DNA from: Kofleriaceae bacterium
GTDB lineage: Bacteria; Myxococcota_A; Polyangia; Haliangiales; Haliangiaceae
DNA: 24,317 nucleotides
Assembly (NCBI GenBank): GCA_033763475.1
Contig: JANRKM010000012.1
Span: 1 to 24,317, forward strand
Direction: 5' to 3'
Numbering within the stretch: the first letter of the stretch is position 1; each line of letters starts with the position of its first letter. Below the pieces are notes generated by a model. The model made no database searches and was not told the DNA's origin. It was given only the letters and a program-made list of their open reading frames with translations. The translations under genes and the position numbers were made by a program. This document shows, one piece after another, positions 1,138 through 4,631 of this stretch.

Positions 1138-2136
1138 GTGCTGCGCATGGCGCGAACTAACGGGCGATTTTCAACGCGGTGCGGAGCTCGTGGTAACCGC
1201 GAGACGCCGTTCTTGCGCGTGGAGAACAACCAGGTGACGGATCTCGTCGAGGTCGAGACGCTCGATCACGTGTTCGTGCAGCTGCGGCTGTCGTATCGCG
1301 TGGACTTCGAGGGTGACCCGCTGCGGTGGTTCAACGTCGAGAACCACGTGAAGTTCCTGTGCGACCACGTGCGCTCGGTGCTGAAGGGCAAGATCCGGAA
1401 GGTGGCGATCGAGGCGTTCTATGCGTGCTCGACCGACCGCATCCGCGATCTGATCCTCGGCGTCCCGGCGGATGGTAAGCGCCCGGGGCTGCCGTTCCCC
1501 AACGGCATGCGCATCGTCGATGTCGACGTCCTCCTCGACGAGGCGCTGCTCGACCAGAGCCAGCACGAGGTCGTGCGCTCGAACATCGCGATGTCGAACC
1601 TCGGGCGCGAGCTCGCGGTGACCAAGCAGCGCGAGGCCATCGCGCGCGAGACCGCCGAGGTGAAGGCTCTCACGGCCGTTCGCCACGACGAGCTCTCGCG
1701 CGAGCTGGCCGCGAGCGAGCTCGCCACCGTGCTCGCGAAGCTGACCAACACGTTGCGCGAGACCGACGAGCGCAAGAAGGTCGTGGAGGCGGAGCAGACG
1801 ATCGAGGTCATCAAGCTGGAGAAGCGACTCGAGCGCGTGAAGCGCGAGCGCGAGCAGGAGCTGACGTTCTTCTCGCGCGAGCAGGACAAGCGCATCGAGC
1901 TGCTGCGGGCCGAGGCCGAGACCGCCGTCCAGCGGTTCACGGCAGCGTCGGGCAACTTCAGCGAGGCGCTGCTCCAGCTCGGCCGGCACGAGACGCTGGT
2001 CAAGGTCGCGCAGGGGTGGGGTGTGCAGCGGGTGATCGAGGGCGAGTCGCTCGGCGATACGCTGTCGCGGTTGTTCAACCACACGCTGCTCAAGCCGCTC
2101 GTTGACAAGCTCACGCTTGGCGATGAGACGGACTAA
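1138..2136 (+). CDS. SPFH (band-7 / flotillin / vault-shoulder-like) domain protein with a long C-terminal coiled coil
   Basis: The segment HVRSVLKGKIRKVAIEAFYACSTDRIRDLILG...MRIVDVDVL matches the C-terminal half of SPFH domains. It is followed by about 150 aa of heptad-like E/R/K/A-rich sequence. The N-terminal beta-strands of a full SPFH domain appear to be absent. Exact start is uncertain. Confidence 0.4.
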   Translation: MLRMARTNGRFSTRCGARGNRETPFLRVENNQVTDLVEVETLDHVFVQLRLSYRVDFEGDPLRWFNVENHVKFLCDHVRSVLKGKIRKVAIEAFYACSTDRIRDLILGVPADGKRPGLPFPNGMRIVDVDVLLDEALLDQSQHEVVRSNIAMSNLGRELAVTKQREAIARETAEVKALTAVRHDELSRELAASELATVLAKLTNTLRETDERKKVVEAEQTIEVIKLEKRLERVKREREQELTFFSREQDKRIELLRAEAETAVQRFTAASGNFSEALLQLGRHETLVKVAQGWGVQRVIEGESLGDTLSRLFNHTLLKPLVDKLTLGDETD

Positions 2137-2997: not shown

Positions 2998-4368
2998 ATG
3001 AAGAAGCTGCTTTGTCTCGTTACGTTGATGGCGTGTAGTGACCCGAGCGAACAGCAGCCGGTCGATGCCCCCTCCGGGGATGATAGCCAGATCGTCACCG
3101 ACGGACCGACCGACCGGCCCGTTACGGTGACGGTCATGGATGAGGGCGTCGGCGTCGCGGGCGTCAGCGTCTACTTCCAGCAGCCGGACCATACGGTCTT
3201 CACGAAGGTGGTGACCAACGCTTCGGGTGTGGCGGCCACCGTGGTCGCCGGCGGTGGCGCGGTCACCGTCGTCGATCCGTTCGCCAACAACACGCTGGCC
3301 GGAGCCCCGTCGCACTCGCTCAGGACCTACCTCGGGGTGCAGCCGGGCGACGAGCTCCTCGTGGTGGGTGACGATGACGGCGAGAACGCGACCGTGACGG
3401 TGACGATCCCGGCGATCAAGGACTTCGCCTTTGCCAATCTAGAGTCGTCGTGCGGCGGCACCACCCTCGAAGCGCTCACGGGCACCCAGGTCGAGCTCTA
3501 TGGCTGCGATGGCATGGCGGACCTCGTCGTCGTCGCGTACGACGAGCTCTCCAATCCGCTCGGCTACCTCTACAAGGCCAACGTCGCGATCACCGATCAG
3601 GGCACGGTGAACCTCGGCAGCGAGACGTACACCGCCGTCCCCAATGCGTCGTTCTCATACGCGAGCATCCCGGCGGCGTTCGGGAACGTGTTTGGTACCA
3701 ACACGCTCGTCTCTCCTCGCGGCACGATCTTCGCCACGACCTCCGGGTCCTCGCTCACCGCGGGCGCGGCCTCGGTCACGAAGCGACGTCCGCTGGTGAC
3801 GTCCACGACCTCGGTGCAGCAACTGGGATTCGATTCCGCGAGCCCGACGATGTCGGCGCACACCGTGTTCCACTGGCAACCGGCCGCGGCCGCGCACGCC
3901 TTCGACGGCACCGGCAAGTTCCTGCCCGACTTCACGGCGGCACCGAGCTACACGGCGGCGACCCGGCAGGTGTCGTGGACCTCGAGTGGCGGTGTACCGC
4001 CCGACCTCACATTCGTGTCGATCGACGCGGTCCGCAACTCCGCCGAAACGATGTTCTGGCAGTGGAAGCTGATCGCGCCCTACACCGCGACGACGTTGAC
4101 CCTCCCCGCGCTGCCCACGGAGATCGCGCAGTACGTGCCGCTTGCGACTGACTCGGTCGAGCTCGTCGAGCTCGGCGCCGCGAAGCTCCCCGGCGGCTAC
4201 GCGGCGGCGCGCCCGCTGTACTTCGCCAACCTGGACGGCCCCCCGATCACCGGCACGAGCGGCACGATCTCGCTGGTCTCCTACTCCGAGCCGAACACGG
4301 TGCGCACCACGGGACCGACGAAGGTCAAGGCCGCGATCAAGGCCAAGGCCCCGCGCGCCCGTCGCTGA
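2998..4368 (+). CDS. Large S/T/G/V-rich lipoprotein (hypothetical), predicted beta-rich. Track ORF 2890..4368; the likely start is ATG 2998.
   Basis: MKKLLCLVTLMACSDPSEQQ gives a signal peptide with Cys at +13 (lipobox-like LMAC). High GC3. Low-complexity T/S/V-rich body. K/A-rich C-terminal tail KVKAAIKAKAPRARR. Confidence 0.55.
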   Translation: MKKLLCLVTLMACSDPSEQQPVDAPSGDDSQIVTDGPTDRPVTVTVMDEGVGVAGVSVYFQQPDHTVFTKVVTNASGVAATVVAGGGAVTVVDPFANNTLAGAPSHSLRTYLGVQPGDELLVVGDDDGENATVTVTIPAIKDFAFANLESSCGGTTLEALTGTQVELYGCDGMADLVVVAYDELSNPLGYLYKANVAITDQGTVNLGSETYTAVPNASFSYASIPAAFGNVFGTNTLVSPRGTIFATTSGSSLTAGAASVTKRRPLVTSTTSVQQLGFDSASPTMSAHTVFHWQPAAAAHAFDGTGKFLPDFTAAPSYTAATRQVSWTSSGGVPPDLTFVSIDAVRNSAETMFWQWKLIAPYTATTLTLPALPTEIAQYVPLATDSVELVELGAAKLPGGYAAARPLYFANLDGPPITGTSGTISLVSYSEPNTVRTTGPTKVKAAIKAKAPRARR

Positions 4369-4525: not shown

Positions 4526-4631
4526 GAGGGTCAGACACTACTTCCACTACTAGCTGCTACTAGCTGCGCTGGTCACGCGAGTCGCTGTCCGGTGCCGGAC
4601 AAGTAAGTAGTGAAAGTAGTGTCTGACCCTG
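4526..4631. mobile_element. 106-bp MITE-like element or structured-RNA candidate with 24–25-bp terminal inverted repeats. Left arm gagGGTCAGACACTACTTCCACTAC, right arm GTAGTGAAAGTAGTGTCTGACCctg, one internal mismatch. The 56-bp loop contains a TAGCTGC direct repeat and the TGTCCGGtgCCGGACA palindrome (4586–4601).
   Basis: The inverted repeat was read directly. The arms are AT-richer than the surrounding DNA. The element sits in the non-coding gap downstream of the 2998..4368 gene. Confidence 0.5.

Follow-up and report, generated by a model that had tools for sequence, protein, structure and literature searches.

The stretch of DNA analysed here (the window) is the whole 24,317-bp contig of a metagenome-assembled genome (MAG) of a Kofleriaceae bacterium (Myxococcota), with a GC content of 68%. 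At positions 4527–4630 it carries a 104-bp inverted-repeat element, which we interpret, with a probability of about 0.8, as a gene-less, non-autonomous member of a terminal inverted repeat (TIR) family tied to a Y1/HUH element of the Myxococcota, of the TIRtron/TIRYT kind (TnpA_Y1 subclass 2.1). Di Nocera, De Gregorio & Rocco (2013) described RAYT-like genes that are flanked by long TIRs and not by repetitive extragenic palindromic (REP) sequences as TIRYTs, and the units so formed as TIRtrons (PMC3733652). In this reading the window element is a derivative resembling miniature inverted-repeat transposable elements (MITEs) and REPINs which, by analogy with related systems, was probably mobilized in trans by way of single-stranded DNA. 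It contains no gene but retains both arms and one hairpin. The assignment rests on the dispersal of the family, on arms that bound a transposase gene at two loci, on the domain make-up of the encoded protein, on the absence of target-site duplications and on the conservation of the arms at the level of sequence, each of which was observed directly.

The two arms are 25 nt long, match at 24 of 25 positions (96% complementary) and enclose 54 nt; positions 4526 and 4631, both g, are unpaired and lie outside the element. An earlier, sequence-only reading had drawn the element as 106 bp (4526–4631) with 24-bp arms and a 56-bp interior; the near-perfect pairing that it described stands, while the sizes have to be revised to those given here. 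That the inverted repeat is real is clear from comparisons within the window. Among inverted repeats within 300 bp it is the longest and best of the entire window, and a 22-nt arm query with up to three mismatches matches the window at the two arm sites alone and finds nothing in 100 dinucleotide-preserving shuffles. The arms are AT-richer than the host DNA, as had been noted (G+C of 12/25 and 11/25, about 46%, compared with 68% for the window). They differ from one another by a single C/T at arm position 18, and the outer 17 nt are identical to the family consensus described below. The TAGCTGC direct repeat of the earlier reading is present as part of an exact 10-nt tandem duplication, which extends the left arm; the GTCCGG palindrome is also present and, judging from its counterparts in related elements, is the subterminal hairpin of the family and not an incidental sequence. 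Folding of the two strands gives −69.9 and −69 kcal/mol, with z scores of −6.5 and −7.1 against shuffled sequence. The flanks read cgacg before the initial AGGG and gcagc after the final CCCT, so that the window copy has no target-site duplication, in agreement with what had been reported. Because the enzyme of the parent element is of the Y1/HUH type, this absence is to be expected and is not a weakness of the interpretation.

The arms belong to a dispersed repeat family. The arm RGGGTCAGACACTACTTNCACYACTTG occurs 61 times in 28 other loci, which derive from a Myxococcales MAG and from metagenomes, and the consensus of these 61 arms, collected with up to three mismatches, is RGGGTCAGACACTACTTGCACYACTTG. 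An exact scan of species-representative genomes with GGGTCAGACACTACTTYCAC, in which TTYCAC was copied from the window arms and which misses the majority variant TTGCAC, found locus L001 of the Myxococcales MAG alone; here two left and two right arms surround a different core. The exact-pattern scan of metagenomes returned 27 loci, of which one sample, Ga0316628, contributed 19. In this sample the family occupies at least 17 distinct sites, whose flanks are non-homologous save for two locus pairs. The commonest layout is an inverted arm pair of 86–87 bp with about 33 variable nt within; the others are singlets and clusters of the types ++--, +--, ++ and --. Singles, dimers and clusters were thus seen across the 28 loci, which come from one MAG and from metagenomes. 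Copies are almost always intergenic, and many are wedged between convergent genes, a few nt from their stop codons. No target-site duplication was found in about 20 relatives inspected, nor was a conserved tetra- or pentanucleotide that might serve as an insertion target seen beside any of the 61 arms. Seven 16-mer matches in viral contigs lie in low-GC DNA and do not extend along the arm, and were set aside as chance; the plasmid collection gave no arm match.

The terminal motif GGGGWSAS is common to many TIRtron TIRs; there are also TIRs that make up families of moderate abundance, with copies occurring singly, as dimers or in clusters (PMC3733652). In the present family, 15 of the 61 arms start with GGGGTCAG, which fits the motif at all eight positions, and 45 start with AGGGTCAG, as do both window arms, which corresponds to 7/8. 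Since the arms start with RGGGTCAG, the family fits the TIRtron/TIRYT kind.

Two further repeats were observed near members of the family. At L001 (6133–6230) the TIR cluster is adjoined by a second inverted-repeat family, CGAAATGGGGTCRGACCCCATTCCGG, with which it has the core GGGGTCRGAC in common. A pair similar to this second family, AGGGTCAGACCCT, is found at L025 (1595–1652).

The connection to a transposase comes from longer units that are bounded by the same arms. At L027 (68–1290) and L009 (33–1257), units of 1.22 kb are delimited by a + and a − arm (68–83 and 1275–1290 at L027; 33–48 and 1242–1257 at L009), which enclose a Y1 gene, and L012 holds the N-terminus of a third transposase copy behind two arms. 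The 3′ end of the transposase gene extends into the arm, which results in C-termini like ...VVQVVSDP. The product of about 300 aa matches Pfam Y1_Tnp with 25.5 bits (gathering cut-off 23) and Bac_DnaA_C with 18.8–24.9 bits, below the cut-off of 31.5, and its best NCBIfam match is REP_Tyr_transpos (NF047646), with 47.2 bits against a cut-off of 80. Among 483 homologues, many are labelled ‘REP element-mobilizing transposase RayT’ by JGI, and the named NCBI homologues are from Myxococcota/Kofleriaceae MAGs. The residues H60 and H62 of the HUH motif, as well as Y118 (in AYIHNNPVRAG), are invariant in the 27 of the 483 that were aligned.

A phmmer search with the single transposase gave no match among PDB sequences; the alignment profile matched the DnaA chains 2hcb and 1l8q over the C-terminal part (E = 5e-4). 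Comparison of an AlphaFold model (mean pLDDT 80) with known structures gives as top match 4er8, the E. coli RAYT bound to REP (E = 2e-5), followed by the DNA-binding domain of M. tuberculosis DnaA (3pvp, TM 0.76) and 1j1v, and then by the transposases of ISDra2 and IS608. The associated protein is a RAYT-like Y1/HUH transposase with a DnaA-domain-IV-like C-terminus, and its putative assignment to subclass 2.1 rests on the HUH and Tyr residues, the Y1 fold and the DnaA-like C-terminus.

A second reading frame accompanies the transposase gene in these units. Between the 5′ arm and the TIRYT gene there is a conserved open reading frame (ORF) of 76 aa (L027, 958–1188, − strand; L009, 923–1153, − strand; 74% identical), with no Pfam match, and a gene of 74 aa precedes the transposase homologue P0007, which is 76% identical. 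The TIRtron of this lineage may be a two-gene unit.

Homologues that are 49–50% identical, from Kofleriaceae and other MAGs, are likewise bounded by inverted arms. These distant arms keep the outer GGGTCRGAC and the inner ...CAACTT and differ in between: AGGGTCAGACGCCATCTAGACAACTT at L036 (a Kofleriaceae MAG), GGGGTCAGACGCCAGTTGCGCAACTT at L039 and GGGGTCGGACACAACTTCCACAACTT at L040. With respect to GGGGWSAS, L039 starts with GGGGTCAG (8/8), L036 with AGGGTCAG (7/8) and L040 with GGGGTCGG (7/8, with G at the A position); a search with the exact motif finds no match in the L040 TIRs. On this comparison the arm sequence co-varies with the transposase lineage. At L040 both tandem 9-mers of the arm carry the same change relative to the window family, from CACTACTT to CACAACTT, which is as expected if each 9-mer serves the same protein domain. 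Within about 10 kb of the L036, L039 and L040 genes no further arm copies were seen; the family of the window, by contrast, is expanded. Directly after the Kofleriaceae TIRtron at L036 (10971–11117) there are three tandem 49-bp repeats, whose units end in CACTACTTGTTGCA, a sequence that holds the arm 9-mer of the window family.

Each end of these elements is composed of an outer RGGGTCAGAC, two tandem 9-mers of the form CACYACTTN and, in this lineage, a subterminal GTCCG-loop-CGGAC hairpin. In the lineage of L027, L009 and L012, every transposase-flanking end has a GTCCG-N4-6-CGGAC (or GGCCG...CGGAC) hairpin situated 2–8 nt inside the 27-nt arm, and the right half of the window element aligns with these ends, hairpin included (blastn, 90% over 50 nt). 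The two arms of an element are not equivalent. Of 21 pairs, 13 have a C/T difference between their arms at position 22 and 11 an A/G difference at position 1, and the two differences are linked, from which it follows that the ends can be told apart and the 87-bp elements oriented. Their polarity is thus fixed, even though the TIRs are nearly perfect. When 14 elements (L002–L026, 77–87 bp) were oriented in this way, no compensatory changes were seen in any of the 27 arm pairs: where a base has been substituted, the pair is lost. At position 22, where one arm mostly has C and its partner T, in linkage with G/A at position 1, a standard pair is never formed. It is therefore the sequence of the arms that is conserved and not a helix, a pattern that fits recognition of one DNA strand by a protein better than selection for an RNA helix.

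The features of the window copy are collected in the table below. Duplications at the border like its 10-mer also occur in a relative, L007, where tandem duplications of 24 bp and 10 bp lie at the left and the right border, respectively. This relative (982–1110) has its element and right flank in common with L021 (3947–4050) at about 84% identity, and the left flanks of the two cannot be aligned.

Features of the inverted-repeat element in the window (positions in the 24,317-bp contig).
Feature	Positions	Strand	Remarks
Whole non-autonomous TIR element	4527..4630	.	104 bp; family consensus from 61 arms
Left terminal inverted repeat, AGGGTCAGACACTACTTCCACTACT	4527..4551	+	starts with AGGGTCAG, 7/8 of the TIRYT motif GGGGWSAS (PMC3733652)
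Right terminal inverted repeat	4606..4630	-	reverse complement AGGGTCAGACACTACTTTCACTACT; C/T relative to the left arm at position 18
Two tandem 9-mers of the left arm, CACTACTTC and CACTACTAG	4536..4553	+	iteron-like; candidate protein-binding site
Two tandem 9-mers of the right arm	4604..4621	-	reverse complements CACTACTTT and CACTACTTA; AAGTAGTG twice at 9-nt spacing
Exact 10-nt tandem duplication, CTACTAGCTG twice	4547..4566	+	adds a third, degenerate unit to the left arm
Subterminal hairpin/palindrome, TGTCCGG-TG-CCGGACA	4586..4601	.	4 nt inside the right arm; holds the core motif (T)TGTCCG

Models for the movement of such an element are provided by IS608/ISDra2 and by E. coli TnpA_REP. 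By analogy, a TIRYT encoded elsewhere in the genome would recognize the ends in single-stranded form, for instance at replication forks, would use the hairpin and the terminal motif to locate them, and would cut the borders via a 5′-phosphotyrosine intermediate. The excised piece would then be reinserted without duplication of the target. The C-terminal helix-turn-helix might bind double-stranded 9-mers in or beside the arms. As a secondary effect, a stable hairpin downstream of a gene may influence the transcript of that gene.

A tentative extension of this scheme, which we consider doubtful although worth stating, is that the DnaA-domain-IV-like domain of subclass 2.1 Y1 transposases may have its DNA sites in the ends of these Myxococcota elements. 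The candidates are the tandem arm 9-mers CACYACTTN and/or DnaA-box-like 9-mers just inside the arms. The variable cores are rich in (T)TGTCCG/CGGACA(A). Using the DnaA-box consensus TTRTCCRCA, a pattern that was chosen after seeing the data, 17 9-mers with at most one mismatch are found in 21 cores, compared with a mean of 0.67 and a maximum of 3 in shuffles, and such 9-mers are about 25-fold denser in the elements than in their flanks. In L019 (448–526) the core consists of two perfect DnaA boxes of the E. coli type in inverted orientation, TGTGGATAA ... TTATCCACA; that of L006 holds TTGTCCACA, and L020 has TCATCCACA and TTATCTACA beside its arms. Weighing against the idea, the residues at the DnaA recognition stretch differ in the profile alignment (SQQ in the family against DHT), and the best box of the window copy, TTGTCCGGC, has two mismatches. 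If the idea is true, DnaA-like recognition of 9-mers in double-stranded DNA would anchor an HUH transposase that acts on single strands, or else the elements would recruit the host DnaA; either link would tie the repeat family to replication.

The element starts 158 nt past the stop codon of a strongly coding gene (2998–4368, + strand; locus tag SFX73_00555), which encodes a 456-aa lipoprotein-like protein (MDX2086298.1). It lies in a 1.1-kb gap, from 4369 to about 5493, in which the ORFs have a third-position GC content (GC3) of 0.65–0.71, compared with 0.80–0.94 for real genes. This gap separates two co-directional genes, is unusually long for bacterial intergenic DNA and may itself be decayed sequence. 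Between 4300 and 5500 no promoter-like or terminator-like sites were found, and neither Rfam at gathering thresholds nor a tRNA scan gave a match in the element region. A permissive Rfam scan returned a single 25-bit match to the plant miRNA hairpin MIR918 (threshold 268), which is meaningless.

Several points weigh against the TIRtron assignment. Neither tblastn nor a profile search of the six-frame translation found a transposase gene or remnant in the 24-kb contig, which holds one copy of the family. That copy is atypical: it is 104 bp long instead of 87, has A1/T22 in both arms and carries a single GTCCG hairpin. Its first arm base is A, so that GGGGWSAS is matched at only 7/8. An orthologous locus was looked for, to see whether the site is filled or empty elsewhere, and the nearest homologues of the flanking 456-aa protein are only 50% and 44% identical; at the locus of one of them (L038) the gene order is different and the arms are absent. 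Finally, biochemical evidence for any TIRYT was not found in the literature.

Some of these points would also suit an immobile relic, in which a TIRYT-derived element has lost its transposase from the genome, or has itself decayed, and is now neutral intergenic DNA. The contig without a TIRYT, the atypical build (104 bp, the extra 10-nt duplication, the single hairpin) and the unusually long non-coding gap all point in this direction, as does the report that genomes with both TIRtrons and TIR families are limited in number (PMC3733652). The absence of a gene from a single contig, however, says little about the whole MAG, and arms that still match at 24 of 25 positions and keep the outer 17 nt of the consensus argue for a recent origin or continued constraint. 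We regard the relic state of the window copy as a real possibility, albeit an unlikely one. A different kind of explanation, to which we give little weight, is that the family is maintained as a host RNA or DNA structure, such as a stabilizer of transcript 3′ ends, a terminator or a small RNA. In favour of this, both strands form a very stable hairpin (z about −7), the element lies downstream of a strongly coding gene, many relatives lie a few nt from stop codons, often between convergent genes, and REPs have been reported to act as RNA elements (PMC3733652). However, the stem is followed by GCAGCTCC and not by a T/U tract, no terminator- or promoter-like site is present, and the Rfam searches returned nothing beyond the plant hairpin. 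The lack of compensatory changes in the 14 relatives, with position 22 never forming a standard pair, is likewise difficult to reconcile with a selected helix, and the association with a transposase accounts for the dispersal without any host function. The stem-loop small RNA or terminator proposed by the sequence-only reading is for these reasons not upheld.

The same reading had proposed a miniature transposable element, which is supported by the dispersed family and by its full-length relatives with a transposase; what changes is the parent, which is Y1/HUH and not the DDE enzyme of the usual MITE. A classical MITE, that is, an internally deleted DDE insertion sequence moved by cut-and-paste, would explain the 25-nt TIRs, the small size and the lack of coding capacity, but it is very improbable given that neither the window copy nor the roughly 20 relatives have a target-site duplication, that a Y1/HUH enzyme is encoded by every full-length element found with these arms, and that the arms fit the TIRYT motif. 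Its third suggestion, a site-specific recombination site (integron attC-like, dif or att), fares least well of all. An imperfect inverted repeat of about 100 bp is of typical attC size; the ends AGGGTCAG / CTGACCCT, however, are not the attC cores RYYYAAC / GTTRRRY, the window ORFs that were scanned contain no integrase or recombinase domain, and the copies are dispersed singly and do not form cassette arrays. A retron msd, attC and CRISPR were likewise set aside: reverse transcriptase, integrase and repeat array are all lacking, and the ends are of the wrong kind.

Elsewhere in the window, a gene at 1138–2136 (+ strand) encodes a 332-aa protein with the shoulder domain of the major vault protein (Pfam MVP_shoulder, 73.9 bits). 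Its neighbours include genes for a Uma2 endonuclease (2133–2744, − strand) and DUF1697, WD40, YARHG and SUFU-like proteins.

Under the TIRtron/TIRYT interpretation, an AT-rich hairpin in a GC-rich Kofleriaceae contig is to be annotated as ordinary mobile-element debris and not as an RNA gene. The Myxococcota lineage offers an expanded family (at least 17 loci in one sample), well-defined ends and a matching transposase, that is, concrete substrates for the question of how a Y1/HUH enzyme with a DnaA-like DNA-binding domain treats inverted-repeat ends. The architecture of these ends, with tandem 9-mers, a subterminal hairpin and DnaA-box-like motifs, is the point of biochemical interest.

Among known systems, the closest are the TIRtrons, for which Stenotrophomonas maltophilia K279a (ORFs 1152 and 4509) and Koribacter versatilis (ORF 1552) provide examples (PMC3733652). 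Like them, the present family has a RAYT-like Y1 gene inside long inverted repeats, here starting with RGGGTCAG compared with GGGGWSAS; the 3′ end of the gene overlaps the TIR, and across the loci collected the TIRs are also seen as singles, dimers and clusters. The C-terminal helix-turn-helix resembling Bac_DnaA_C agrees with TnpA_Y1 subclass 2.1 as described by Quentin et al. (2018), in which a C-terminal Bac_DnaA_C/HTH domain (HTH_23/HTH_28-like) is found and which probably corresponds to the TIRYTs (PMC6006769). The same authors did not find REP-like structures near subclass 2.1 genes, and noted that the TIR motif is unlike DnaA boxes, leaving the role of the domain open (PMC6006769). The present elements differ in their host, Myxococcota/Kofleriaceae, which is not named in the main text of PMC3733652 or PMC6006769, the two papers to which the term TIRYT is confined in the searchable literature. 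They also differ in having ends with a subterminal GTCCG-loop-CGGAC hairpin, interiors enriched in DnaA-box-like 9-mers, and the conserved 76-aa ORF between the 5′ TIR and the transposase gene.

The likeness to the REPIN/RAYT system (Bertels & Rainey 2011, PMC3116915; Nunvar 2010, PMC2817692) lies in two inverted units of about 25 nt that form, with a spacer, a hairpin of about 100 bp, in the non-autonomous, extragenic nature of the copies, which lack target-site duplications, and in a transposase of the RAYT clade of Y1/HUH enzymes, the protein model of which best matches 4er8. High REP abundance has been reported for RAYT groups 2 and 3 only (PMC5581495). In contrast to a REP, the arm of 25–27 nt consists of direct 9-mers, is not self-complementary and has no palindrome tagged with GTAG (or CGTC); GTAG is present inside the arm 9-mers and not as a hairpin tag, and the sole palindrome is the separate GTCCG hairpin. 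The protein, which has the additional DnaA-like domain, scores 47 bits with the NCBIfam RAYT equivalog, where the cut-off is 80. Because of the untagged arm and the score below the equivalog cut-off, the family is not a REPIN/RAYT system in the strict sense.

With IS200/IS605 elements (IS608, ISDra2) the family has in common the Y1/HUH fold, subterminal hairpins near the ends and the absence of target-site duplications, and their single-strand ‘peel and paste’ transposition would be the best available mechanistic model. The ends of IS200/IS605 elements are not inverted repeats of one another, whereas 27-nt TIRs are present here, and no conserved tetra- or pentanucleotide target lies beside the arms; on account of the TIRs the family is not placed with IS200/IS605. 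The Correia/NEMIS, ERIC and RUP repeats (listed in PMC3733652) are similar in appearance, with a length of about 100 bp, TIRs of 15–30 bp, an intergenic location and a strong hairpin. They are ascribed to DDE transposases, in contrast to the Y1 parent and the missing target-site duplication of the present family, which for the same two reasons is not a DDE MITE. Correia elements carry a TA target-site duplication. The type of element found in the window has thus already been described in other bacteria, where it has barely been studied, and the Myxococcota lineage is new for it.

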